A DNA stretch of 11,648 nucleotides, taken from positions 1-11,648 of IMG/VR virus record IMGVR_UViG_2671180963_000004, one strand, 5' to 3'. Under the pieces are notes generated by a model, which was not told the DNA's origin, did not search any database, and saw only the letters and a list, made by a program, of their open reading frames with translations. This document shows, piece by piece, positions 1-11,648 of the stretch (positions within the stretch are counted from its first letter, which is position 1; the number at the start of each line of letters is the position of its first letter). The position numbers and the translations under genes were made by a program. Source of the DNA: a virus. Its lineage: Duplodnaviria > Heunggongvirae > Uroviricota > Caudoviricetes.

Positions 1-219
1 TCACATCCACATAATTTGCTGCCCTGACGGCAACGGGTGCGGCCTCACGGCGTGGACTTCTCCCGGCTTCACGATGTATCGCTGTACCGACTCATAAGTG
101 ATGAACGTGGCGCTGCAATTCACGTTCTGACACTGGTGATAACGCTCTTTTGTCGTGTCAGTGATATAGCGACTTGTACGCGCATGTGCGGCATGCTGGC
201 ATAAAGGACAATGAAACAT
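1..219 (-). CDS. ogr: Ogr-type late-gene transcription activator (72 aa zinc-finger protein)
   Basis: Translation from ATG at 217-219 gives MFHCPLCQHAAHARTSRYITDTTKERYHQCQNVNC..., with a C-x2-C-x22-C-x4-C zinc-binding pattern, and matches P2 Ogr as I recall it. SD-like GAGGTG lies 7 nt upstream. The ORF-track extension to 282 is probably not translated. Stop codon is at 1-3. Confidence 0.88.
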   Translation of the reverse strand: MFHCPLCQHAAHARTSRYITDTTKERYHQCQNVNCSATFITYESVQRYIVKPGEVHAVRPHPLPSGQQIMWM

Positions 220-253
220 CGCGAGCACCTCTTCCGGTTTTGTTGATGGTGCC

Positions 254-282
254 ATTTTAGTTAATTTATCCTTATAAAACAA
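254..282 (-). promoter_or_regulatory. Candidate sigma70 promoter for ogr (-35 TTGTTT at 282-277, 17-nt spacer, -10 TAAAAT at 259-254, read on minus strand)
   Basis: Hexamers read by eye in the AT-rich 80-bp spacer between the D remnant stop (301) and the ogr start (219). No other support. Confidence 0.3.
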
Positions 283-300
283 ACAGATAAAATAAAAACA

Positions 301-1179
301 TCACTCATCATCTTCTGTTTCGTACTCCACATCAGAAAGCCTGACCTCAAGCTCCAGGGACGTCGTGAAGCCGCTATTATTCAGAAAATGTGTCACCTTA
401 GTGATTGTCCAGTCCTGCTCGTCTATGACGCGCTTAAAGCCTGATACTTTGACCGGCGTTTCCGTGTAAATATCTGCCCGACCAGTAGCCAGACTGATGG
501 AGAACTCCGCAACGCCCCGTTGCAGCTTATCCCACTTCGCCTGAGCGGCGCGCATGGCCTGCGCTTTCGTGGCATATACCGTGGTCAGGGCAAAAACGTT
601 GTCAGCCTCACCTGCCATGTATTCACCTTCGCGCGCTTCCGGTACTTTTGGCGCTTTCTTCTGCGTGACCGGTTTCGCTTTCGGGTGCTCCAGTGCGCGC
701 AGGTGTTTCTCTTTCTTTTTGCGTTTCAGTTTTACCTTCTGCTTTTGTGGCTTCGGGTCTTTGGTGTGTAACCACTTTGCCGTTACGCCGGTATAGGCTC
801 CACGGTCAGCAATCGCAAAATGATGGCGGTCGCCGTCGCTGCGGGTTATGGTGACCTGCGGGATTTTTTTACCACTGGCCGTCACCCCCTGCCCCGCTTT
901 GAGAAACAACAATTTTCCCATTTTTACCGACACCTCACCGCCGTTGCGTTCAGCAAGACGGGTCAGGAATTTCGCATCGGACTCCTGCGACTGGTCGATG
1001 TGCGGGATTTTAATTCCGGCCAGTGACGGAGCGACACTGGCCTCCAGCCTGTTACGGGAGGCTATCGCCTCAACAATCGCACCGAGTGTGGTGTCATGCC
1101 AGGAGCCTTCCCGGCGGGAATTGAGCGTCCCGCGAAAATCTGCACTCCGGGCGCGGATGGTAATCCGGCCAGATGACCA
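301..1179 (-). pseudogene. D: Tail protein D (P2 gpD-like), 5'-truncated or frame-disrupted remnant
   Basis: Called ORF 301-933 begins at a GTG. Manual in-frame translation continues upstream as ...ITIRARSADFRGTLNSRREGSWHDTTLGAIVEAIASRNRLEASVAPSLAGIKIPHIDQSQESDAKFLTRLAERNGGEVSVKMGKLLFLKAGQG..., up to an in-frame TGA at 1180-1182. No plausible start codon with RBS; an N-terminal portion is missing. Confidence 0.7.
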
Positions 1180-1357
1180 TCAGCTCACGCTGGCTGAAAT
1201 TCTGGCGGTAGGCTTTCACCTCGGAAATGGTCTTACAGCCCCATGCGCTGATATAAAGGGAAATCAGTGTCGCCTTGCGTTCGGCGAGAATGGTTTCAAA
1301 GTCCAGCTCCTCGACCACATCCGGTGCGGGTAGCTGGTTCAGGTCGATAATCGGCAT
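1094..1357 (-). pseudogene. J: Baseplate protein J (P2 gpJ-like) N-terminal stub; only about the first 35 codons look J-like, remainder runs into D-derived DNA out of frame
   Basis: N-terminus MPIIDLNQLPAPDVVEELDFETILAERKATLISLY matches the P2 gpJ N-terminus as I recall it. The ORF is 87 codons, far shorter than a full baseplate J protein of roughly 300 aa. Sits 4 nt downstream of the W stop, as expected for the V-W-J order. Confidence 0.55.
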
Positions 1358-1361
1358 GGTT

Positions 1362-1709
1362 TCAACTCACAGGGATGGTTAACGAAAGTGGCTGGCCGGT
1401 GTCGTTGTGCTGGCCGGTTAACGTGACCGTCATTCGCCCGTCAAAACTGCGCGCCGTAGTGACGGATGACAGGGTGACGCGGGGTTCCCATTTCAGCACC
1501 GCCATGTAACAGGCGACCTTAATCTGCAACTCAAGCGCCTGGGTCTGCGGCTGGTCAATCATTGATGCCAGCAACGAGCCGTAATCACGACGCATCACCC
1601 GTGAGCCGACCGGTGTGCGCAGGATATCGCCGATACTCTGGCTGATATGCTCAAGGTCAGTGACAGTCAGGCCATCACTGCGATTCATTCCGAGATAACG
1701 TGCTGTCAT
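1362..1709 (-). CDS. W: Baseplate protein W (P2 gpW-like, 115 aa)
   Basis: Full-length 115-aa ORF, MTARYLGMNRSDGLTVTDLEHISQSIGDILRTPVGSRVMRRDYGSLLASMIDQPQT.... Its start overlaps the V stop by 4 nt (ATGA). Position V-W-J is syntenic with P2. Confidence 0.85.
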   Translation of the reverse strand: MTARYLGMNRSDGLTVTDLEHISQSIGDILRTPVGSRVMRRDYGSLLASMIDQPQTQALELQIKVACYMAVLKWEPRVTLSSVTTARSFDGRMTVTLTGQHNDTGQPLSLTIPVS

Positions 1710-2341
1710 AGAGGACTCCCGGTTGTGCCGCCGCTGTCTCCTGGGTGTTTGTGGGTATGCAGTACCTTACCGTTTGATGAGAGTTCACCGCCGGTGTGTT
1801 CAATGTTGCCGCGCATCGTCCCGCCCTTCTGCACTTCCAGCGTGCCGGTAATCAGCCTGTTGGTGCAGACCACCTCCGGTGTGTCCAGGGTGACGCGGGT
1901 TGATGCTTTCACCATGACCACCGGCACCGTGGCAGTAACAGAATCAGAAGCCGTCACGCTGACCGTTTTAATTCCGCTTACCGTGAGTGCACTGGTTTCG
2001 GGTTCATATTCAATCACCGCTCCGTCAGGGAAACGGATATGCAGGGCATCCGCCGACGCAGACGGCGCGGGGTTATCGCCGGAATAAATCCCCGGCAGAA
2101 CGAACGCCGTGTCGAGTTCACCGCCCACGGCCAGAATCAGCACCTGCTCCCCCACGGAAGGTGCCCACCATGTGCGCGAACGACCGGCACGATGGGTCAG
2201 CCACTGAAGCCAGTCAGTGCACATGCCGCCGGTCTGCACACGGCAGCGACCGGCGTTAAGGTCGGTTTCGACGACAAGGCCGGTGCGGATCATGTTGCGC
2301 AGTGCGCGCGCGAGTTCCTGAATATTTGCGAGAGTGTTCAT
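1706..2341 (-). CDS. V: Baseplate central spike protein V (P2 gpV-like, 211 aa)
   Basis: 211-aa ORF of the length expected for gpV. Lies between S and W in P2 order. Confidence 0.85.
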   Translation of the reverse strand: MNTLANIQELARALRNMIRTGLVVETDLNAGRCRVQTGGMCTDWLQWLTHRAGRSRTWWAPSVGEQVLILAVGGELDTAFVLPGIYSGDNPAPSASADALHIRFPDGAVIEYEPETSALTVSGIKTVSVTASDSVTATVPVVMVKASTRVTLDTPEVVCTNRLITGTLEVQKGGTMRGNIEHTGGELSSNGKVLHTHKHPGDSGGTTGSPL

Positions 2342-2407
2342 AACGGGAAGGATGCCGCCGGGTCATACCGGCGGCAATGTGACGATGAGGTGTCGGGAAT
2401 GGCACAA

Positions 2408-2860
2408 CTAACGGTCGAGGTGCGCCAGAATAATCTCTTCAATCATCTGCACATCCTCACCGGTAAAGCCGAGCAGGGGACGCGCCGGATAATCAATTTT
2501 CTTACCGTCTTTCCGGTTTTCTTCCGACAGACCGAACTGATGCACACTGGCGATTTTCGGTGACTTTCCGCCGTAAAATTCCATTGATGCCTGTTCCGGG
2601 CTGGCGCGGATATGCAAAAAACGACTGGTGATAAGTTTCGCAAACATTTTTCGCTTAACACGACCAGTCTTTTTTCTGGCGCTCTGCTGCTGGCGTGGCA
2701 CGTAGGGTGTGCCGTCCGGGGCTTTCTGTGCCATCACCCGACGCTGCTGACTCTGCCGCAGGCGCTTCGCCAGTTCGGCACTCAGTCGCCGACGCCCTGA
2801 CGGTGACAGCGATTCAATCAGTCCGGTCAGCCGGTCTTCAAAACGCTTAAACTCATTCAT
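2408..2860 (-). CDS. S: Tail completion protein S (P2 gpS-like, 150 aa)
   Basis: 150-aa ORF; start overlaps the upstream R-frame stop by 8 nt, as in a coupled late operon. Sits in S position upstream of V. Confidence 0.82.
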   Translation of the reverse strand: MNEFKRFEDRLTGLIESLSPSGRRRLSAELAKRLRQSQQRRVMAQKAPDGTPYVPRQQQSARKKTGRVKRKMFAKLITSRFLHIRASPEQASMEFYGGKSPKIASVHQFGLSEENRKDGKKIDYPARPLLGFTGEDVQMIEEIILAHLDR

Positions 2861-3059
2861 CCCACTTACTCACCAGTTCGCCATTGATATAAAGCTCCAT
2901 CGGGCGGGTGACCGGCTCCGGCGGCGGAGGTTCCGGGATATTCTTCACATGCAGCGCGCCGTCCACCTCACTGACCAGCGTGCGCTCGGTCAGCATCAGG
3001 CTGATGCTGATACAGGACAGGATTCGGGAAATAAACGGCTGGCTCGGCCAGGAGGTCAT
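2853..3059 (-). pseudogene. R: Tail completion protein R (P2 gpR-like), 3' fragment only (68 codons)
   Basis: 68-codon ORF ending 8 nt inside the S start, i.e. R position. Manual translation upstream of the ATG at 3057-3059 hits an in-frame stop at 3072-3074. Full-length gpR is roughly twice this size, so this is probably a 5'-truncated remnant. Confidence 0.55.
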
Positions 3060-3105
3060 CCGCTTTAAAAACTACTCACTGGACACTGACAACGGCTGAA
3101 CATCG

Positions 3106-3126
3106 CCGCCTGCGGGCGGCTTTTTT
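3106..3126 (+). terminator. Intrinsic terminator-like hairpin (GCCGCC-TGCG-GGCGGC followed by TTTTTT), plus-strand orientation
   Basis: Perfect 6-bp GC stem with 4-nt loop, followed directly by a T6 run. Oriented for rightward transcription, opposite to the flanking late genes. Consistent with a relic terminator from the far side of a deletion, possibly downstream of gene Q. Confidence 0.4.
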
Positions 3127-3268
3127 ACACCCCGTCATCACGCCCTCACACGCTCACCACCGCACAAAACACCCCGCAGACACACCAACGCCCCGGCGCA
3201 CAATCTAAACGCCATCAAGACGCGCTCAGACGCTGAAAAAATAAAATCAGCACCACCGCCAGCGCGCA

Positions 3269-3287
3269 GTGCTTTCCCCGCCTCGCC
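3269..3287 (-). other. cos: P2/P4-type cohesive end site (cos), 19 nt
   Basis: GTGCTTTCCCCGCCTCGCC at 3269-3287 is the exact reverse complement of the P2/P4 cohesive-end sequence GGCGAGGCGGGGAAAGCAC as I recall it. Orientation agrees with the reversed gene order. Confidence 0.8.
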
Positions 3288-3472
3288 CGCCCGCTTCATG
3301 GGGCATTTTTAATGCAGTTGCATGAACACTCCAAGAGCACACCATCGCTAGTGATAACTAACAATAAAAGCGACTTCTGACGCATGCAAATCCATGCACA
3401 TGATGGCATTTTTCATGATCTATGCGGTATGCTATCCGCTTCAATTTTTAACACTTGTTAAGGGAGCTAGAC

Positions 3473-4615
3473 ATGGACATTATTGATTTAAAATCTCAAC
3501 TAGAAAATGAAGATAATGCCAAGAAAAGAGCAGAGTTGCTTGCTCAGCTAGAGGTGATAAAGCAAAACGCTGAAGAGCAAATTCGTGCTGAGCAAAAGGA
3601 TGTGGATTTTGAGACCAAAGAATTTACCGTTGAGTTATTAGTTAATAAGTATCATAGCGGATTAGAGGATGATACTAACGAACTCTTTGTTCCTGATTAT
3701 CAAAGGGATTTTGTTTGGAGTGAAAAAAGACAATCAAGATTGATAGAGTCTTTGATTTTGGGTTTTCCTATACCATATATATTTACAGCAGATGTTCTCT
3801 CCGAAGATCCCGATTTAGATGGGCGAATTGAGATTGTTGATGGCTCACAGCGAGTTAGGACTATACACGCTTTTATCCAAAATGAATTAGTTTTACAAGA
3901 TCTGAAATCTTTAGACGCCCTTAATGGTTTCAAATTCCAAGATTTACCATTATCACGTCAACGTCGTTTCATGAGAATTCCTGTCCGCGTTATAGAATTG
4001 AGTTCTAAATGCAATGAAGAAACCCGTAGAGATCTTTTTGAACGTATTAACTCTGGCAGCGATATATTGAAAGATATGGAAGTCCGTAAAGGATCAGAAC
4101 TTGGTTCAACAAATTTATATACACAGGTTATTAAGCCATGCTCAACAATACCTAAATTTAAAGAATTAGCACCTTTATCTCAGACTAAAGAAAAACGAGA
4201 TGAACGGTTAGAATTTACATTAAGATTTTTTGCCTACTTAGATAAGTACAAGAACTTTGATCATTCCGTACGGGATTTTCTAAATGACTATATGTTAGAA
4301 AATCGAGATATAGACGAAACTAAACAAAACTCAATGAAACAAGAGTTTGCTAATGTTCTATCTTTTGTTGATAACTATTTCCCAGCAGGATTCAAGAAAA
4401 CTATTACTGCAAAATCTACACCTCGAGTTAGATTCGAATCTCTCGCTGTTGGCGCAGCACTTGCATTACGTGAAATCCCTGACCTTGTTCCCAAGAACTT
4501 GGATTGGCTAAGCTCAGAAGAATTCAAACGATTGACCACTTCAGACGGAGCTAATAGTCGCGTGAAGGTAATTGAACGAATTGAATATGTTCGGGATAAA
4601 TTATTAGAGGATTAA
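3473..4615 (+). CDS. DUF262 (ParB/GmrSD-N-terminal-like) domain protein, about 380 aa, no fused DUF1524/HNH nuclease domain
   Basis: Motifs DYQRDFVW (nt 3695-3718) and IVDGSQR (DGSQR at 3839-3853) are the hallmark QR..VW and DGQQR-type motifs of DUF262. Preferred start is ATG 3473, preceded by SD AGGGAG at 3461-3466; the ORF track uses TTG 3455. No (D/E)HxxP-type nuclease motif seen in the C-terminal half. AT-rich composition. Confidence 0.8.
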   Translation: MDIIDLKSQLENEDNAKKRAELLAQLEVIKQNAEEQIRAEQKDVDFETKEFTVELLVNKYHSGLEDDTNELFVPDYQRDFVWSEKRQSRLIESLILGFPIPYIFTADVLSEDPDLDGRIEIVDGSQRVRTIHAFIQNELVLQDLKSLDALNGFKFQDLPLSRQRRFMRIPVRVIELSSKCNEETRRDLFERINSGSDILKDMEVRKGSELGSTNLYTQVIKPCSTIPKFKELAPLSQTKEKRDERLEFTLRFFAYLDKYKNFDHSVRDFLNDYMLENRDIDETKQNSMKQEFANVLSFVDNYFPAGFKKTITAKSTPRVRFESLAVGAALALREIPDLVPKNLDWLSSEEFKRLTTSDGANSRVKVIERIEYVRDKLLED

Positions 4616-4616
4616 C

Positions 4617-5297
4617 ATGGATCGTTTTCGTGAGGATTTTGACGAAAGGTCAGGAGAGATCTTGGCCTATTTAGATCTTTTGAAATTTATTGAGTATGCC
4701 GGTGCAGAACTGATATCATCTGATGATAAAGAACATAAGTTCTCCATTACTGCTCAATCACGAAAAACTCTAAAGGGGGCAGTATATATTCTATTATATA
4801 ACCTCATTGAATCAACAATGAGAGAAGCTATCTGCCTTATTCATGAGACTATTTATGATAGAAACGTAGAATTTGACAAACTCAGGAAAAATATCAGGTC
4901 AGAAATATTAAAAAGATTAAAAAATGAATCTGTAAATATTGAAAGTTTAGTTAACCGTCTTACTAAAGGTATATCTTGCGGTATATCTTATGGCACTTTC
5001 AACAAAAAGAAAATATTCTCAGGAAATATTGATAGAGAGGAAATCAAAGAAAAATCGAAAATATATGGTTTTTCAACATATTCTGATTACACTCACACTA
5101 AACATGGTGAAAAATTAGCCACTGTCAAACAACATCGTAATGATTTATCTCATGGCAATGTATCATTTGCTGAGATTGGAAAAAATGTTTCATATCAGGA
5201 CTTAGAGAATATTTCATTAGAAGTAATCGCCTATCTTGATGCAATCGCGAATAATATAGAGCACTATATAAATAATAATGAATATTTAGAACAATAG
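4617..5297 (+). CDS. HEPN-like protein with Rx4H motif (putative RNase/nuclease effector), 226 aa
   Basis: ATG at 4617 is 1 nt after the upstream TAA (4613-4615), with SD-like GAGG at 4607-4610, indicating translational coupling. C-terminal region has KQHRNDLSHG, i.e. R174-x4-H179 (cgt 5136-5138, cat 5151-5153), the HEPN signature. Largely helical-looking, K/E-rich sequence. Pairing with a DUF262 protein resembles the MAE_28990/MAE_18760-type HEPN family naming as I recall it. Confidence 0.7.
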   Translation: MDRFREDFDERSGEILAYLDLLKFIEYAGAELISSDDKEHKFSITAQSRKTLKGAVYILLYNLIESTMREAICLIHETIYDRNVEFDKLRKNIRSEILKRLKNESVNIESLVNRLTKGISCGISYGTFNKKKIFSGNIDREEIKEKSKIYGFSTYSDYTHTKHGEKLATVKQHRNDLSHGNVSFAEIGKNVSYQDLENISLEVIAYLDAIANNIEHYINNNEYLEQ

Positions 5298-5303
5298 TAA
5301 TAA

Positions 5304-5320
5304 GGCCTGCAAAGCAGGCC
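5304..5320. terminator. Bidirectional terminator-like hairpin (GGCCTGC-AAA-GCAGGCC) between convergent genes
   Basis: 7-bp perfect stem with 3-nt loop in the 29-bp gap between the HEPN stop (5297) and the methyltransferase stop (5327). Flanked by T-rich sequence on plus (ATTTTAT) and A-rich on the other side. Confidence 0.5.
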
Positions 5321-5326
5321 ATTTTA

Positions 5327-6352
5327 TCATTCTAAATGGTTCTTGATTGATTGCCCAATTGCTTTTCCTAGTTCCACAGGAACAGCATTACCTATCATTT
5401 TCCCAATACTTCTTATAACAAACTTGTCTTTGTCTTCTACAAAGATATAATCCATCGGAAAAGTTTGCAATAAAGCAGCCTCTCTAAGAGAAATCGCTCT
5501 ATGCTGTTCTGGATGTCCAAAACGTCCATTTCCGAAACCATAACAAAGAGTTGTAATTGTTGGACTTGGCTTATCCCAAGACATGCGCCCATATACACTA
5601 GCATATCCTTTACCGCTAGATTTCATATGACAAGCAGCAATCAGCTCCTTCGGCCAGTCCTTCCATGTACCACCAGGAACAGAGTGTATAATTCTTTTTT
5701 TATTAATCGGATTTAATTTACTGGCTCTATGTAATATATCATTTGGATCTGTTTGGCCATCTTCTAACGGAGGAAGATTTCCTATTGCATCTCTAACTGT
5801 TTTCAAAATAACATCGTCACGTTTTACTAACTCAATCGCCCCCAATTTTGAAGCCAACAATACATGACGGGAACGGTTTTGTGGGATTCCATATTCGACA
5901 CAATCAACCTTCGACGCCCAAACATAATAGCCCAACTTTAACAATGAATTATAAAAATCATTATAAACTTTATGTTTAGTTACATCAGGAACGTTCTCCA
6001 TTGTTACGATTTCTGGAGATACTTCGCGAATTAAACGTTCGAACTCATAAAGAAGAGGCCATTTTTTATCATCAGCCTTATCTTTTCCTTGAGTATATTT
6101 TGAAAAAGGTTGGCAAGGTGCGCATCCTGCCAATACTTTTACAGACGCATCACCATAAAGCCTCAGCAGTTCCTCTTTTGTTACTTTAGCGATATCTTGC
6201 TCAATAAACTTAGATTTATTGTTTCTTTCATAGGGAAACCGACATTCCCCCTCAAGGTCTATGCCTGCAACGACATCAAGCCCCGCAAGCTGTAAACCAT
6301 GAGTTAATCCGCCAGCACCACAAAAAAGGTCTATCACCTTTACAGTCATCAT
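5327..6352 (-). CDS. DNA (cytosine-5)-methyltransferase, Dcm/M.HhaI-like, 341 aa
   Basis: Canonical C5-MTase motifs in order: motif I DLFCGAGG (AdoMet binding), motif IV GCAPCQPFS (catalytic PCQ, about 6110-6118), motif VI ENV (about 5990-5998), motif VIII QNRSRHVLLAS, and a C-terminal GNAVPV. SD-like GGAG upstream of the ATG at 6352. Confidence 0.9.
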   Translation of the reverse strand: MMTVKVIDLFCGAGGLTHGLQLAGLDVVAGIDLEGECRFPYERNNKSKFIEQDIAKVTKEELLRLYGDASVKVLAGCAPCQPFSKYTQGKDKADDKKWPLLYEFERLIREVSPEIVTMENVPDVTKHKVYNDFYNSLLKLGYYVWASKVDCVEYGIPQNRSRHVLLASKLGAIELVKRDDVILKTVRDAIGNLPPLEDGQTDPNDILHRASKLNPINKKRIIHSVPGGTWKDWPKELIAACHMKSSGKGYASVYGRMSWDKPSPTITTLCYGFGNGRFGHPEQHRAISLREAALLQTFPMDYIFVEDKDKFVIRSIGKMIGNAVPVELGKAIGQSIKNHLE

Positions 6353-6435
6353 TCACTCCAAATCTATACGATGCTCAGTATACATCCCTTTCTACAAAAT
6401 CTCGAGGCCTAACTTATAAACTCCTATTGATTGAG

Positions 6436-8535
6436 TTAACGCTTCACTGAGTTTGACTCTAATACTGTTGAGAATCCCGGCCACTCATCAGCGACCTGAT
6501 AAGTAAAATGTTTCCCGTCATAATTTACGGTCGCCCCACGCGCCAGCGCCTCAAGCTCCCATCGCTGCGGCCTGATACCGTTCTGAGCGAGGTCAACGCG
6601 GATACGGGTAATTTGCATTCGTTCCGACCGGGTCAGTCTGGCCGATGGTGCCATTTCATACTGTTTTAACGGGCTTCCGTTTCTCTGCTGACGATTTGGT
6701 GTTCTCAGCCCGTGTTTTAATGCGCCCCTGAGCGCCCTCACGACCTCCGGGTCATTCCATTCGATAACACCGTCATCAACCAGATTAAGCACTGCTGCGG
6801 CGTGCTCAGAAGGCGTGGGAGCCGGTAACGAAGTATCACCGCTGGTGAGCTTTCCACAGTTATTGACAGGACTCCGAGGCGCGGCGATGCCGCTTTTTAA
6901 AGTCAAAGGCTCAACGACCGGCACTTTCGGAACAATGCGCCAGTCCGTCGTTCTGGTGATATGAATATGACGCGCGCCGAGATGCGGCGCGTAAATGCCG
7001 ACCACTCTCTCGACTTCTTCCTCGTACTCGTTAACTTCATCCGACGGACTACGGGCGACCCTGACAGTCTGACAATCGCGCGGGACATTTGCCCCACCCT
7101 GCGCGCTGATATACAGCGCAAAATCACCACTGTCTGCGGCGGCGCGTGCAGCCTCGACGCGCTCGTCAAACTCATCAGCAATGCTGACGCCGCGAGGCAA
7201 TTTGCGTAGTTCACGGTAAGCCCCCATTGTCGGCAGGCCAACCGTTTTAAATTGCGGAATGCGCCACGTTGACGCCCATGCGGTAACAGCCGCGGCAGTA
7301 TCTTTCAGCGGTCTGCCGGTATCGTTATCGAGCTGCCCATCCAGTGCATAGCCGTCGATATTTTTTGAGATGTATTTCGCGATATACCCCGCAGCACCGC
7401 CCCGATTAAGATGTTTTGCCTGAAAACGGTTTCGCGCGGCTCCTCTTTCGTCGCCATCCTCTTTGAGCGCATAGCGACGCATGATTTCGATAATCTGGTT
7501 ACGCTGGCGTGGATTACAAAAAAACATCATATGCCAGTGCGGCGTTCCGTCGTGGTGTGGCTCGACGACTCGCAAACCGTAGACCTGTAAATCATTATCC
7601 TTGAATGCCGTGCGCATCAGGCTCCAGATACGGCAGAGATAACGCTGCGCATCCTTTGGATTAAATGCCTCATCGTTCCAGCCGTGATTTAGCTGGACGG
7701 TTTTACTTTCGCCTTTTCCAACCTGACGTGTCGGGTGATACTTTGACGGCGCGGTCAGCGTGATAAACATCCCCACATCACCCTCTGCGGCGGCGTAACG
7801 CTCAATACCGGCAATGGTGTTCATCAGCTCCATCCGGCGAATTTCAGGATTAGAAATACTGCCCATCACCTTACTGATAAGGTCGATGCGCTCGCCTGTT
7901 TCCCTGTTTTCGAGATCACACGATTTAAGAAATTCCAGATTTGCCTGGCGGCGTGCACGCACATCACGAATGGCATGTTTACTGGCATAAGGAGAACGGT
8001 CTTTATTGACCTCCCCGACAGCAATCAGTAACGCCTCATGCCAGCGCATACGCTGGCCTTTAAGCTGATGAGTCCACCACTCATCGTTAAACAGACGGGC
8101 AATGGCAGAATATGCCTGCCTCGTGGTCATCTGTCCTTTACGGTATTTTTTCCAGTAGAGAGGGGAAATATTGAAAGCACGTGCAGCGCCAGCAACATGA
8201 CCATAGAGGTGAGCCTGCGCCTCATCCGTAAACAGCGATTCTTTTTCGCCATGCGCATCCACCCATGCATCGCAGAGTTCCTCATACATCATGAAAAGCT
8301 GCGATGAGATACGGGCGGCAAACTTTTTCAGCTCCTTGTCATTCATTCCAGGCAGGCGCGCATAATGGTCACGCTCTGCCAGAAACAGCAACGACGCGTC
8401 GGTGTTCATTTCATGGCGCTGATTCACGCGCTCAATGCGCGGCCATAAGCGACGCTGAAAAGTGGATGTGAGGAAATAAAACCCGTGCAGCAGGTATTGG
8501 CGCATCACACTCTTCGCAAACCAGCGAAGAAACAC
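6436..8535 (-). CDS. A: Replication initiation protein A (P2 gpA-like rolling-circle HUH endonuclease)
   Basis: HUH motif in PHHDGTPHWHMMFF and tyrosine pair in GYIAKYISKN, typical of P2 A-family initiators. Called start 8533-8535 is a GTG with an in-frame stop 9 nt upstream (8545-8547); an in-frame ATG at 8503-8505 (MRQYLLHGFYF...) is an alternative start. Coding region overlaps the upstream zinc-finger ORF. Confidence 0.85.
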   Translation of the reverse strand: MFLRWFAKSVMRQYLLHGFYFLTSTFQRRLWPRIERVNQRHEMNTDASLLFLAERDHYARLPGMNDKELKKFAARISSQLFMMYEELCDAWVDAHGEKESLFTDEAQAHLYGHVAGAARAFNISPLYWKKYRKGQMTTRQAYSAIARLFNDEWWTHQLKGQRMRWHEALLIAVGEVNKDRSPYASKHAIRDVRARRQANLEFLKSCDLENRETGERIDLISKVMGSISNPEIRRMELMNTIAGIERYAAAEGDVGMFITLTAPSKYHPTRQVGKGESKTVQLNHGWNDEAFNPKDAQRYLCRIWSLMRTAFKDNDLQVYGLRVVEPHHDGTPHWHMMFFCNPRQRNQIIEIMRRYALKEDGDERGAARNRFQAKHLNRGGAAGYIAKYISKNIDGYALDGQLDNDTGRPLKDTAAAVTAWASTWRIPQFKTVGLPTMGAYRELRKLPRGVSIADEFDERVEAARAAADSGDFALYISAQGGANVPRDCQTVRVARSPSDEVNEYEEEVERVVGIYAPHLGARHIHITRTTDWRIVPKVPVVEPLTLKSGIAAPRSPVNNCGKLTSGDTSLPAPTPSEHAAAVLNLVDDGVIEWNDPEVVRALRGALKHGLRTPNRQQRNGSPLKQYEMAPSARLTRSERMQITRIRVDLAQNGIRPQRWELEALARGATVNYDGKHFTYQVADEWPGFSTVLESNSVKR

Positions 8536-8620
8536 CGCAATGTTTTACCCTTGCCGCGTTAATCTGGCGCTCCAGTAATTCAGCCTGTTGTTCCTGAATA
8601 AAATCTACGTTGTCCGGCAT
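8432..8620 (-). CDS. Small TraR/DksA-like zinc-finger protein (possibly degenerate), 62 aa
   Basis: Contains CEECDAPIPAAR, resembling the C-x2-C-G-x-P-I-P-x-x-RR core of TraR-family phage zinc fingers. The expected second CxxC pair is absent in all three frames; the tail is VLFPHIHFSASLMAAH. Overlaps the A start region by about 70-100 nt. Confidence 0.45.
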   Translation of the reverse strand: MPDNVDFIQEQQAELLERQINAARVKHCGVSSLVCEECDAPIPAARVLFPHIHFSASLMAAH

Positions 8621-8622
8621 TA

Positions 8623-8925
8623 TCAGCTCCTTTTATCGTTAAGTTTCCTGGATACATCAGCGCAATAACTGGCGAGTTCTGTCGTTAATTTTGTCAGTTC
8701 ATCCACTGAGGAAATTTGCTTGTGGAACACAGCGCGTTTAACAAGTAAATTGACCACATCAGACAGGAGGTTTAATTCATTCTGATAAATCGCGATAACA
8801 GATTCAGTTATGTCGCGTTTTTCTTTATCAAGACAAAGTTGAATAAGAGACAAATCACCATTTTCCATAACGGCGATTTTTAAGGCGTTATTCAGTAATA
8901 CAACTGAATGAGAACAGGACATCAA
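8623..8925 (-). CDS. Hypothetical small early protein (100 aa), in the B-to-A interval
   Basis: ORF in the same orientation as the early operon; start overlaps the upstream ORF stop by 4 nt (8922-8925). No recognisable motif. Confidence 0.5.
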
Positions 8926-9146
8926 AGCACCTCCCCGCGAGACAATCCGATATTGTGAAATTTTTCCGACTCCTGACTGAGCAGCTCGACTATCTCCACG
9001 CGGGATAACTCCGCCTTTGTGATATGGCGAATCATGGCGTCAAGATGAGAAGAAAAGCGCGTCGCAGCGTCGGCCTGTGCTTCGGTTCTGGCCTGTTGCA
9101 GCAGTAATGCGTATTTACCGCACTGATTTTCAGAAACTGTATGCAT
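8922..9146 (-). CDS. Hypothetical small early protein (74 aa), downstream of B
   Basis: ORF in early-operon orientation, coupled by overlap to the next ORF. No recognisable motif. Confidence 0.5.
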
Positions 9147-9209
9147 GACTTTCTCCAGGCAAAAAGAAGCCCCGCACGATTAAGTGCGTTAAAAACTCTG
9201 GTTAATTAT

Positions 9210-9710
9210 TTAATGCAAATATTGCTCTGGTTTTACCGACGTCAGAATTGTCGGTGCATACTCAAACAGACTGAATAGTTCACGTAATGCACGGAATAAA
9301 GCATCACGCCAGTAACATGACTCTTCATTAATTCGCCAGTATGGCTGATTGAATTCTTTTTCAGTCAATCCGGCATGCATAAATAAAGTACGACGCTGAC
9401 TGACTGTTAAAAAACTAATATATGCATACTCACTTGCGCCAACCTGACGGCGTTTTGAGAATGCCCCACGCAATTCATCAATTGCACAAACCAGCCGTTC
9501 ACGTTCGACGTCGTTCATTTCTTCAAAACGCATCGTTGCGTGACGTTGTTTTAACTGCGCATGAAAGCAAACTGTTAGCCGTTCGCGCTCCATCATCTGA
9601 TTATAATAATCACATGTATCCTGCCAGCGAGGGACGGCAAGATGCTTACCAATTATCCGGCGCATAGCTGCTGGCTGTTTTTCGACGAGATTGAGCGTCA
9701 TCACTGTCAT
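9210..9710 (-). CDS. B: Replication protein B (P2 gpB-like, 166 aa, helicase-loader-type early protein)
   Basis: 166-aa ORF of the length and position (downstream of cox and a small ORF, upstream of A) expected for P2 B. Confidence 0.75.
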   Translation of the reverse strand: MTVMTLNLVEKQPAAMRRIIGKHLAVPRWQDTCDYYNQMMERERLTVCFHAQLKQRHATMRFEEMNDVERERLVCAIDELRGAFSKRRQVGASEYAYISFLTVSQRRTLFMHAGLTEKEFNQPYWRINEESCYWRDALFRALRELFSLFEYAPTILTSVKPEQYLH

Positions 9711-9877
9711 TTCCAGACCCTCCGGCTTTTCAGAAAGGTCAGAGCCTTTTTTAACGGACTCTGTTTTTTGGTGCGGATAATGATTCCCTTACGCCCCTTA
9801 CCGTGGGTGATGGTGAAGTCAATCGCCCTGGGGCTTTCGTTACGCAGTAACTGAGCAATACAACGCGGTTCACTCAT
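9707..9877 (-). CDS. Small early ORF between cox and B (orf78-like position), about 56 aa
   Basis: ORF track starts at ATG 9902-9904, which would overlap the cox 3' end by 25 nt. In-frame ATG at 9875-9877 lies 2 nt after the cox stop and is preferred. Stop overlaps the B start (ATGA-type). Confidence 0.45.
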   Translation of the reverse strand: MSEPRCIAQLLRNESPRAIDFTITHGKGRKGIIIRTKKQSPLKKALTFLKSRRVWK

Positions 9878-9879
9878 AA

Positions 9880-10152
9880 TCACAACCCCATCCACAAAAG
9901 CCATGCATCACGCTGTTCAACTGGTCGGTTATAAAACGCCTCTCGTACAGCGCGATTAAACTCTGGAATGAAAACCCACTTCTCACCGACACGAGCGTTC
10001 GGCTTACTTGGATCACGAAGCTCAATAACTGGCAATTTATTCTCTTTTACCATCTTGACTACAGCCGTTTCTGGCTTACCAAGTAACTCTGCAAACTTAA
10101 CCGTATGTACCGCATCAATCGGGTACTGAATCACATAGTCATTGACTTCCAT
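9880..10152 (-). CDS. cox: Cox (P2-type excisionase/early-promoter regulator), 90 aa
   Basis: 90-aa ORF, first gene of the minus-strand early operon and divergent from C. Region KLPVIELRDPSKPNARVGEKWVFIPEFN...RDAWLLWMGL resembles P2 Cox as I recall it. Confidence 0.78.
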   Translation of the reverse strand: MEVNDYVIQYPIDAVHTVKFAELLGKPETAVVKMVKENKLPVIELRDPSKPNARVGEKWVFIPEFNRAVREAFYNRPVEQRDAWLLWMGL

Positions 10153-10197
10153 TGATTAGCCCTTTTTGCTTTCGTGTTACCCTTATTAGATCCAGCC

Positions 10198-10227
10198 CCT
10201 TCTAGGTCGCCCCTGTCCTTTCTAGGG
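10198..10227. repeat. Direct repeats CCTTCTAGG / CCTTTCTAGG (10198-10206 and 10218-10227): second candidate operator or Cox-box pair
   Basis: Near-identical 9-10-bp direct repeats spaced about 21 bp apart (two helical turns) in the cox-C intergenic region. Confidence 0.3.
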
Positions 10228-10248
10228 ACTGGCTAACACACTCAAAAG

Positions 10249-10292
10249 GTCACCAATACACAACCTTTTGACGGGAATATAAGTCACCAATA
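10249..10292. repeat. Direct repeats GTCACCAATA (10249-10258 and 10283-10292) flanking the candidate Pe -10: candidate repressor (C) or Cox operator half-sites
   Basis: Exact 10-bp direct repeat, 34 bp apart, one copy inside the Pe spacer and one just downstream of the predicted start site. Confidence 0.35.
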
Positions 10293-10304
10293 GGTTACTG
10301 TCAA
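10276..10304 (-). promoter_or_regulatory. Candidate early promoter Pe (minus strand): -35 TTGACA (10304-10299), 17-nt spacer, -10 TATATT (10281-10276)
   Basis: Near-consensus hexamers with 17-bp spacing, read on the minus strand. Lies on the C-proximal side of the cox-C intergenic region, consistent with the face-to-face Pe/Pc arrangement described for P2. Confidence 0.5.
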
Positions 10305-10598
10305 ATGCAGACATTCGAAAAACTGAAAGCGATTAGGAAAGCAGAAGGCTTAACACAGGCGAAATTCAGCGAAATTAGCGGGATAGCTCTAGGAACAGTC
10401 AAAAATTACGAAAGTGGGCATAAAGACCCTGGTCTCAGCATCGTTATGCGAGTCACAAATACGCCTTTATTTAAAAAATATACGCTCTGGTTAATGACTG
10501 GTGATACGTCACCACAAGCTGGTCAGATCGCGCCGGCTCTCGCACACATTGGGCAAAAACCAACAGAATCAGACCGCTCCGAAAAACAGACTGGTTAA
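10305..10598 (+). CDS. C: Immunity repressor C (P2 C-like, 97 aa, HTH)
   Basis: N-terminal helix-turn-helix region LTQAKFSEISGIALGTVKNYESG. C-terminal KYTLWLMTGDTSPQAGQIAPALAHIGQ closely resembles P2 C as I recall it. Divergent from cox and upstream of int. Confidence 0.82.
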   Translation: MQTFEKLKAIRKAEGLTQAKFSEISGIALGTVKNYESGHKDPGLSIVMRVTNTPLFKKYTLWLMTGDTSPQAGQIAPALAHIGQKPTESDRSEKQTG

Positions 10599-10667
10599 CA
10601 CTCTATAAACATTACATTTTCACCATTTGTTACCAAGATGGTGAATACAGCGTCAGAGGGCTTTCTT

Positions 10668-11648
10668 ATGTCAATTAAGAAGCTCGATGATGGACGCTAT
10701 GAAGTGGACATTAGACCTCGCGGTCGCGACGGAAAACGCATCCGCAGGAAATTTGAAAGAAAAGCTGAGGCTGTAGCATTTGAGCGATACACAATCGCCT
10801 ACGCCAGCCAGAAAGAATGGGCAGGTCAGCGAGCAGATCGCAGAACTTTGAGTGAGTTGCTGGACATCTGGTGGAAATATCACGGGCAAAACCACGAGCA
10901 TGGAACAAAAGAGTTTAATCATCTGCTCAAAACCATCAGCGGCATAGGTGATATACCAGTGAGCCGGATGAGCAAAAGAGCTTTGATGGATTATCGTTCC
11001 ATGCGACTACGAAATGGTATCAGTGCCGCAACGATAAACCGTGACATGTACCGATTATCCGGCATGTTCACAAAATTAATTCAATTGGATGAATTTTCCG
11101 GGCAACACCCAATTCACGGACTGCCGCCACTGGCGGAGGCCAACCCTGAAATGACGTTCCTGGAAAAAGCAGAAATCGAAAAACTGTTAAATGTTTTGGA
11201 TGGTGATGACTTACTTGTCGCACTTTTATGTCTGAGCACTGGAGGAAGATGGACGGAAGTTGCCACGCTAAAACCAGCACAGATTACAAATTGCAGGGTT
11301 ACCTTCCTGAAAACCAAAAACGGTAAAAAGCGAACCGTGCCGATTTCTGAGGAACTGGAGAAAAAAGTTAAAGAGGAGGCCAGCGCTAAATTATTCAAAG
11401 TTGATTATGAGAAGTTTTGCGGGATTTTACGCAGAGTGAAGCCAGATATACCACCCAATCAGGCAACCCACATCCTGCGGCATACATTCGCAAGCCATTT
11501 CATGATGAATGGGGGCAATATAATCGCACTGCAACAGATTCTGGGACATGCGAGCATTCAGCAGACGATGGCCTATGCGCACCTTGCGCCTGACTACCTG
11601 CAAAATGCCGTCGCGCTGAATCCTCTAAAAGGCGGAGTGACGTTATAA
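10668..11648 (+). CDS. int: Tyrosine integrase (P2 Int-like), about 326 aa
   Basis: MSIKKLDDGRYEVDIRP... matches the P2 Int N-terminus as I recall it. C-terminal catalytic region HILRHTFASHFMMNGGNIIALQQILGHASIQQTMAYAHL carries the H-x-x-R box and Tyr of tyrosine recombinases. Preferred start is ATG 10668 with SD AGAGGG at 10655-10660; the ORF track starts at 10638. Stop is at 11646-11648, the window edge. Confidence 0.9.
   Translation: MSIKKLDDGRYEVDIRPRGRDGKRIRRKFERKAEAVAFERYTIAYASQKEWAGQRADRRTLSELLDIWWKYHGQNHEHGTKEFNHLLKTISGIGDIPVSRMSKRALMDYRSMRLRNGISAATINRDMYRLSGMFTKLIQLDEFSGQHPIHGLPPLAEANPEMTFLEKAEIEKLLNVLDGDDLLVALLCLSTGGRWTEVATLKPAQITNCRVTFLKTKNGKKRTVPISEELEKKVKEEASAKLFKVDYEKFCGILRRVKPDIPPNQATHILRHTFASHFMMNGGNIIALQQILGHASIQQTMAYAHLAPDYLQNAVALNPLKGGVTL

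Follow-up and report, generated by a model that had tools for sequence, protein, structure and literature searches.

A predicted HEPN ribonuclease of the MAE_28990 family in a probable DUF262-HEPN-methylase defence cassette of a P2-like E. coli prophage

Introduction

The MAE_28990 family of HEPN proteins was defined by Anantharaman et al. (2013), who also described a gene layout in which its members are accompanied by ParB-like and DNA methylase genes (PMC3710099). HEPN RNases linked to restriction-modification (R-M) genes were considered by these authors to be a second prong of defence, by analogy with PrrC-EcoprrI (PMC3710099). The validated system nearest to the cassette described here is PD-T4-2 of E. 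coli ECOR65, a two-gene 'DUF262, HEPN' anti-T4 system (Vassallo et al., 2022). It protects against T4 both when cloned and in the native strain, and the clone spans two ORFs only, with no methylase. Its B protein, of about 165 aa, was assigned by HHpred to RiboL-PSP (97.8%) and MAE_28990 (96.9%); the text does not state whether protection is abortive or direct (Vassallo et al., 2022). PD-T4-2, Dazbog and Menshen have been grouped as DUF262 systems without DUF1524, and NsnA-like proteins have been argued to be DNA sensors (Li et al., 2025; PMC12065111). The layout of NsnA, a ParB-DUF262 domain followed by a helical 'ParBDB' domain, is the proposed sensor (PMC12065111), and those DUF262 domains that have been characterised recognise modified, not unmodified, DNA (PMC12065111; PMC10952713). 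In the literature searched, we found neither mechanism nor experiments for the MAE_28990 HEPN family, and no mechanism for PD-T4-2.

Phage P2 carries a hotspot, tin/old, which has been shown to be rich in defence systems (Vassallo et al. and Rousset et al.; PMC9519451). Rousset et al. (2022) make no mention of DUF262 or of a methylase in the P2 hotspot. Here we describe a cassette of three genes, for a DUF262 protein, a HEPN protein and a C5 cytosine DNA methyltransferase (Dcm), in a stretch of 11,648 nucleotides (positions 1 to 11,648 of the virus record IMGVR_UViG_2671180963_000004), called the window below. At the level of annotation the HEPN motif is an ordinary find, restating what Pfam, RefSeq and the 2013 comparative study (Anantharaman et al.) hold. 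What is added is the location in the P2 hotspot and, for the MAE_28990 family, the split between Dcm-linked loci and a Dcm-less clade.

The HEPN protein

The middle gene of the cassette (4617-5297, + strand) encodes a predicted RNase effector of 226 aa, identical to WP_000373633.1, which RefSeq names 'MAE_28990/MAE_18760 family HEPN-like nuclease'. It matches Pfam PF18737 (HEPN_MAE_28990) with 103.2 bits (cut-off 26.8; E 2.8e-29), over residues 5-223 of the protein and positions 6-211 of the 211 in the profile, and it also matches PF18735 (RiboL-PSP-HEPN), more weakly. A database search returned 113 homologues, from Enterobacterales, Vibrio, methanotrophs and cyanobacteria. The PADLOC search gave no family at E <= 1 for this protein, PD-T4-2_B included, and a sequence-only search of the PDB gave no match. 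The AlphaFold2 model, built on an alignment of 44 sequences that reaches 30% identity, is all-helical and confident (pLDDT 92.4, pTM 0.88), and has the all-alpha helical-bundle fold of HEPN proteins. The original prediction had taken the protein for a HEPN nuclease. A profile search and a structure prediction, either of which could have spoken for another fold, leave that idea standing, the former with a full-length match above the gathering score.

The catalytic centre was predicted to be the Rx4H motif RNDLSH. On rereading of the ORF, the codons cgt aat gat tta tct cat at 5136-5153 (+ strand), in the frame of 4617-5297, spell R174-N-D-L-S-H179, and the position and residue numbers first given for the motif are correct. 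Taken by itself the hexapeptide is weak evidence, no more than chance would give: when the residues of the 226-aa protein were shuffled 20,000 times, Rx4H appeared in 32% of the shuffles and Rx4-6H in 68%. The extended form RNxxxHG was rare, at 0.17%. It is the family context, and not the six residues alone, that makes the feature real. In the 44-sequence alignment R174, N175, L177, H179 and G180 of RNxLxHG are invariant, and R[NHD]x[LIVM]xHG was found at 79 of the 82 loci examined (see below). The predicted catalytic centre can thus be given as RNDLSHG (5136-5156, + strand), from the sequence read and the alignment, with the invariant G180 added to the Rx4H of R174 and H179. The residue after the arginine is polar, as in the conserved Rx4-6H of the MAE_28990 family. 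A second match, Rx6H from R69 to H76, is due to chance, H76 being unconserved in relatives.

In the AlphaFold2 model R174-S178 form the end of a helix (166-178), which is followed by a loop and a long terminal helix (193-219). By family homology, R174 and H179 would lie on the canonical catalytic helix. The remaining invariant columns of the alignment are Y61, E65, G136, N137, Y150, F152, F184 and G188. Y61 and E65 belong to YNLIE (4797-4811, + strand), within the long helix that comes second in the model (46-81), and are possibly part of the active site or of a dimer surface; G136 and N137 belong to a family-specific conserved loop, FSGNID (5016-5033, + strand). Profile, motif, fold and gene neighbourhood all place the protein in the MAE_28990 HEPN family, and we infer RNase activity, toxicity and anti-phage activity for it.

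The DUF262 partner

The gene directly upstream (3473-4615, + strand) encodes a ParB/DUF262 protein of 380 aa (RefSeq WP_000351260.1), a predicted DNA-binding NTPase sensor. Its start is at 3473 according to RefSeq; the mechanical ORF opens at a TTG at 3455. A single nucleotide separates its stop codon from the ATG of the HEPN gene, which is translationally coupled to it. The protein carries Pfam GmrSD_N/DUF262, and in PADLOC it matches NsnA over its full length (residues 17-380, E 2.1e-54) and, with a lower score, PD-T4-2_A (profile positions 55-355 of 363, E 5.3e-35). The three DUF262 motifs, as defined in PMC12065111, are all found on the + strand: motif I, QRxxxW, as QRDFVW (3701-3718); motif II, DGxQR, as DGSQR (3839-3853), the predicted NTP-binding centre; and motif III, FxxxN, as FERIN (4037-4051). 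The ParB/Srx NTPase motifs are intact, and all five residues of DGSQR (D123, G124, S125, Q126 and R127) are invariant in the alignment of DUF262 proteins. The AlphaFold2 model (pLDDT 86) resembles BrxU, SspE, KorB, PadC, sulfiredoxin and ParB, with BrxU and SspE the best structural matches.

Profile, alignment and structure comparison revealed neither DUF1524 nor any other nuclease domain in the 380-aa protein, and its C-terminal half has no invariant histidine in the alignment. The HEPN protein is therefore the sole predicted nuclease of the cassette. It is reasonable to take the second gene as the likely effector, as was originally proposed, since the DUF262 partner is without a nuclease domain and the third gene encodes a methylase.

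The methylase as third gene

The third gene (5327-6352, - strand) encodes a Dcm of 341 aa (Pfam DNA_methylase, E 4e-58). The protein is M.HaeIII/M.HhaI-like and has the motifs FxGxG, PCQ (catalytic; 6110-6118, - strand), ENV (5990-5998, - strand), QxR and GN. The gene is convergent with the DUF262-HEPN pair. A GC-rich hairpin, GGCCTGC-AAA-GCAGGCC (5304-5320, both strands), is a candidate shared terminator of the HEPN and dcm genes, identified by a consensus scan only; its tail is T-rich on the + strand, at the HEPN end, and a weaker, T/A-mixed one on the - strand, at the dcm end. A promoter scan upstream of 3473 gave no convincing sigma-70 site, with counts not above those of shuffles. The search for an RNA antitoxin or a repeat array in the style of AbiF or ToxIN found neither, but for one sub-threshold miRNA hit and two trivial repeats.

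Relatives were found in 419 species in a one-genome-per-species scan, and 80 loci were fetched; together with two phage/prophage loci they make the 82 examined. The DUF262 gene is directly upstream of the HEPN gene, on the same strand, in every one of them (82/82). Next to the pair, 40 loci have an orthologous Dcm (phmmer about 1e-120), as an intact gene in 38 and as a broken copy in two (L002 and L014). The intact genes are convergent and downstream in 36 cases, and upstream on the same strand in two, both from Acidobacteria. The DUF262, HEPN and Dcm genes are the only ones shared among 37 Dcm-linked loci, the other clusters in the flanks being present in no more than five. An ORF cluster found in 18 cassette flanks proved to be an antisense shadow ORF inside the DUF262 gene. 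Of 5,426 complete genomes of E. coli, nine have the pair, and exactly these nine have Dcm. Median identities to the window proteins are 55% for Dcm and 53% for DUF262, which diverge in step, and 41% for HEPN, which is more diverged than DUF262 in 37/37 Dcm-linked loci. Genes of both kinds described for MAE_28990 neighbourhoods, ParB-like and DNA methylase, are thus present. The module has the methylase as an integral third member that is inherited with the other two genes, a point that the original prediction had missed.

On the DUF262 tree the loci without Dcm group in a single derived clade of cyanobacteria, and Dcm is present in all other lineages bar three cases of apparent decay: Peduovirus P2_4B2 has a split gene, a Dolichospermum a fragmentary one and an Aphanizomenon none. 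The pair can therefore persist without the methylase. At three loci of the clade and about 25 other cyanobacterial loci, the Dcm-less pair is found directly downstream of aconitase B (acnB), in many Nostocales and Oscillatoriales. The conserved gene of about 880 aa upstream of Dcm-less pairs was considered as a fourth component; it is aconitase B itself and reflects chromosomal synteny. This synteny suggests long vertical inheritance of the Dcm-less pair at one chromosomal site.

Related cassettes in other phages and in cyanobacteria

The cassette is mobile, and related cassettes are found in other phages. Peduovirus P2_4B2 carries a diverged copy at the same P2 site (1997-3179 of locus L002), with DUF262 45% and HEPN 30% identical to those of the window. 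Both of these genes are intact, and Dcm is split into two overlapping ORFs; a sequencing error, a frameshift or a methylase that is naturally in two parts could account for this. A tblastn search of phages returned DUF262-HEPN pairs in P2_4B2, in the Klebsiella phage described below and in the Moraxella catarrhalis phages Mcat24-32; Mcat32 and its eight sister phages have the full cassette of DUF262, MAE_28990 HEPN and convergent Dcm (3498-6395 of locus L084). The deposited HEPN CDS of Mcat32 begins late, at 4834 instead of about 4666. In Klebsiella phage ST16-OXA48phi5.4 (Peduoviridae; 3363-5266 of locus L083) an NsnA-like DUF262 gene is followed by the gene of a 220-aa HEPN of the RiboL-PSP type, amid tail genes, a position that may correspond to the second P2 hotspot. 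An hhalign comparison of the family profile with this RiboL-PSP-type HEPN showed no similarity (probability 1.5%). For the HEPN partners in P2_4B2, the Moraxella phages and the Klebsiella phage, too, PADLOC gave no family at E <= 1, and none of them matches PD-T4-2_B.

At eight loci of Microcoleus and Oscillatoriales the DUF262 gene is cut to about 190 aa. These truncated genes have lost the C-terminal helical domain, and in some of them DGxQR is degenerate (YGAQR, DGAER). At one further locus the DUF262 gene is split by an insertion of about 2 kb. Beside every truncated or split cyanobacterial DUF262 gene, the HEPN protein keeps RNxLxHG.

The P2-like prophage setting

The three genes, all of low GC, are found in a cargo island (3301-6400) of 36% GC between flanks of 48-56%. 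In the intact prophage of E. coli CFSAN064036, which is 100% identical, the island is present between the portal gene and gpA. The left boundary of the hotspot is marked in the window by an exact match to a 19-nt sequence, GGCGAGGCGGGGAAAGCAC (3269-3287, - strand), which we take to be a P2-type cos site, and the right boundary by the P2 replication endonuclease gpA (6436-8535, - strand; Pfam Phage_GPA, E 2.5e-124). The cassette thus occupies the P2 tin/old hotspot, between cos/portal and gpA. Two further E. coli hits are P2-like prophages with other methylase-containing cargo in the same hotspot, comprising a 'ParB N-terminal domain-containing protein' with a DNA cytosine methyltransferase and a BbrUII/HgiDII-family restriction enzyme with a DNA cytosine methyltransferase.

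Compared with the CFSAN064036 prophage, the P2-like prophage in the window has internal deletions (1-3010; about 8432-8620). To the left of about 3011, the 3' end of the portal gene, it jumps to gpS/V/W, to fragments of J and D and to ogr, without the genes for head, terminase, lysis, tail fibre, sheath and tube. Also gone are about 600 bp around the gpA N-terminus, a DUF5405 gene and the TraR-like gene, and gpA is N-terminally shortened relative to that of the intact prophage. The deleted arrangement is present in no complete E. coli genome of the collection. It is either a decayed prophage that retained the cassette or an artefact of assembly or splicing.

How the cassette may work

Together these observations make it probable that the 226-aa protein is a ribonuclease of the MAE_28990 HEPN type, with RNDLSHG as catalytic centre, and that it belongs to a mobile defence cassette of a P2-like E. 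coli prophage in which DUF262 is the sensor and Dcm the methylase. The DUF262 protein would bind DNA through its ParB-like domain and helical C-terminal domain, and would read some feature of incoming DNA. The most economical such feature would be the absence of the 5mC mark made by the cassette's own methylase; alternatively, it might be a base modification of the phage type. Binding or hydrolysis of NTP at DGSQR could then lead the DUF262 protein to switch on its co-translated HEPN partner, dimers of which would cut cellular and/or phage RNA (tRNA or mRNA), so that translation and phage growth would stop. What is shown is the fold, the conservation of the motif, the linkage of the genes, the mobility of the cassette and its place in the hotspot; activation of the HEPN protein by DUF262, a part for methylation in sensing and an anti-phage function of the cassette are proposals.

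If the missing 5mC mark is what is read, the cassette would be an R-M system whose restriction arm cuts RNA, with unmarked DNA read by the DUF262 NTPase turning HEPN on. We offer this form of the proposal tentatively, as a possibility. The reading of methylation is its weakest step, because the pair persists without Dcm and because characterised DUF262 sensors read modified DNA. If true, a self/non-self mark on DNA would be converted into translational shutdown, a logic distinct from that of PrrC and of GmrSD-type modification-dependent DNases, and the module, whose conservation extends from prophages of enterobacteria as far as cyanobacteria and Acidobacteria, would have a function.

The conserved linkage to Dcm also fits a different division of labour, in which the ParB/DUF262 protein would be a restriction DNase with Dcm as its cognate methylase, and the HEPN protein a backup in the manner of PrrC, silenced by the complex of the two and released solely by phages that disable or overwhelm DNA restriction. 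This is the model of Anantharaman et al. for HEPN genes linked to R-M, in which the partner is called a 'ParB nuclease' (PMC3710099). However, characterised DUF262 proteins are NTPase sensors, and cleavage is the task of a separate DUF1524, which is missing here. Moreover, an intact pair beside a lost or split Dcm is hard to square with a classical self-restricting DNase, and PD-T4-2 works without any methylase. We therefore regard a DNA-cutting partner as rather unlikely.

DUF262 sensors known to date respond to modified DNA, PD-T4-2 came from a selection on T4 and is protective in the native strain, and the two-gene clade shows that the pair is able to stand alone. These points are those to be expected if the DUF262 protein recognised modified bases of phages (hmC, glucosyl-hmC), as in GmrSD and BrxU and perhaps PD-T4-2, and then activated HEPN, with Dcm travelling along in a separate role, such as shielding the element from restriction in other hosts. 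However, Dcm has been co-inherited, at matching divergence, across Proteobacteria, Cyanobacteria and Acidobacteria, which exceeds what is expected of hitch-hiking, and it is the only other gene shared with the pair among the Dcm-linked loci. Recognition of this type IV-like kind, with Dcm standing apart, appears quite unlikely to us.

The fate of broken DUF262 genes bears on whether DUF262 restrains HEPN or activates it. As a toxin-antitoxin or addiction pair, HEPN would be a constitutive toxin neutralised by DUF262, and the main role would be to stabilise the cassette or the prophage. That several cyanobacteria retain an intact HEPN gene next to a DUF262 gene that is truncated, degenerate in its motif or split by an insertion argues against this and lends some support to DUF262 being an activator rather than an antitoxin, although the survival of HEPN there could reflect polar loss of expression. 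The gene order is also atypical for HEPN/MNT pairs, there is no MNT, and no RNA antitoxin candidate was found, which leaves addiction a very improbable main role. That HEPN is non-catalytic, a regulator that binds a ligand or a protein in the way of MtlR or the HEPN of sacsin, with Rx4H serving structure, is hardly credible: the R, N, H and G of RNxLxHG do not vary among homologues as distant as 30% identity, and inactive HEPN families characteristically lose motif residues (Table 1 of PMC3710099).

R174 and H179 offer a clean handle on a cassette of the defence type. The three genes move together across phyla, and their cooperation could show DNA-modification sensing wired to an RNA-level effector. 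Understanding the cassette would also improve the annotation of P2 hotspot cargo.

Comparison with known systems

The PADLOC profiles used assign the cassette in the P2 hotspot to no complete known system. It is not a HEPN-MNT toxin-antitoxin pair, since there is no MNT gene and the neighbours are DUF262 and Dcm. With regard to classical type II R-M, a methylase with PCQ and ENV is present and no recognisable REase fold was found. With GmrSD, BrxU and SspE it shares the ParB/Srx-like DUF262 domain with its DGxQR NTPase motif. It differs from them in lacking the DUF1524 His-Me nuclease, which is neither fused nor adjacent to DUF262, so that it is not a type IV enzyme of the GmrSD/BrxU kind; the predicted nuclease is instead supplied in trans and is an RNase-type HEPN. 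In Menshen (NsnABC) the likeness again concerns the first gene, as the window DUF262 matches NsnA over its full length and has the same layout of ParB-DUF262 and helical 'ParBDB' domains. However, the NsnB ATPase and the NsnC inPIN-nuclease are lacking. The genes downstream are those of a HEPN effector and a convergent methylase, with no ATPase ORF in the cassette, which is therefore not Menshen. PrrC-EcoprrI, in which a HEPN anticodon nuclease in a type Ic R-M locus is controlled by sensing at the DNA level, is a conceptual precedent, as in both cases a HEPN RNase is genetically tied to genes of DNA modification and DNA recognition. The partners are unrelated, namely HsdMSR and an ABC-ATPase fusion there, and DUF262 and Dcm here. 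At the level of the MAE_28990 family (PF18737; PMC3710099), which has been described computationally only, there is no difference.

PD-T4-2 comes closest. The architecture and gene order are the same, the A component is homologous to the window DUF262 (PD-T4-2_A), and the HHpred table of its authors puts the B component into the same HEPN clade, RiboL-PSP/MAE_28990. The relation of the window HEPN to PD-T4-2 B rests on that table, because no HEPN partner found matches PD-T4-2_B. A homologue search with the DUF262 protein, aimed at PD-T4-2, gave only close relatives among the matches listed. The cassette is nonetheless not PD-T4-2 itself: the B profile misses the window HEPN, the B protein has about 165 aa there against 226 aa here, and DUF262 scores higher against NsnA than against PD-T4-2_A. 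Furthermore, the conserved Dcm is part of the window cassette, which thus departs from the self-sufficiency of the two genes of PD-T4-2. Because the PADLOC model of PD-T4-2_B misses the window HEPN, function is transferred from PD-T4-2 by architecture only. On these comparisons, the cassette of the P2 hotspot is a predicted methylase-linked relative of PD-T4-2, of the DUF262-HEPN type.
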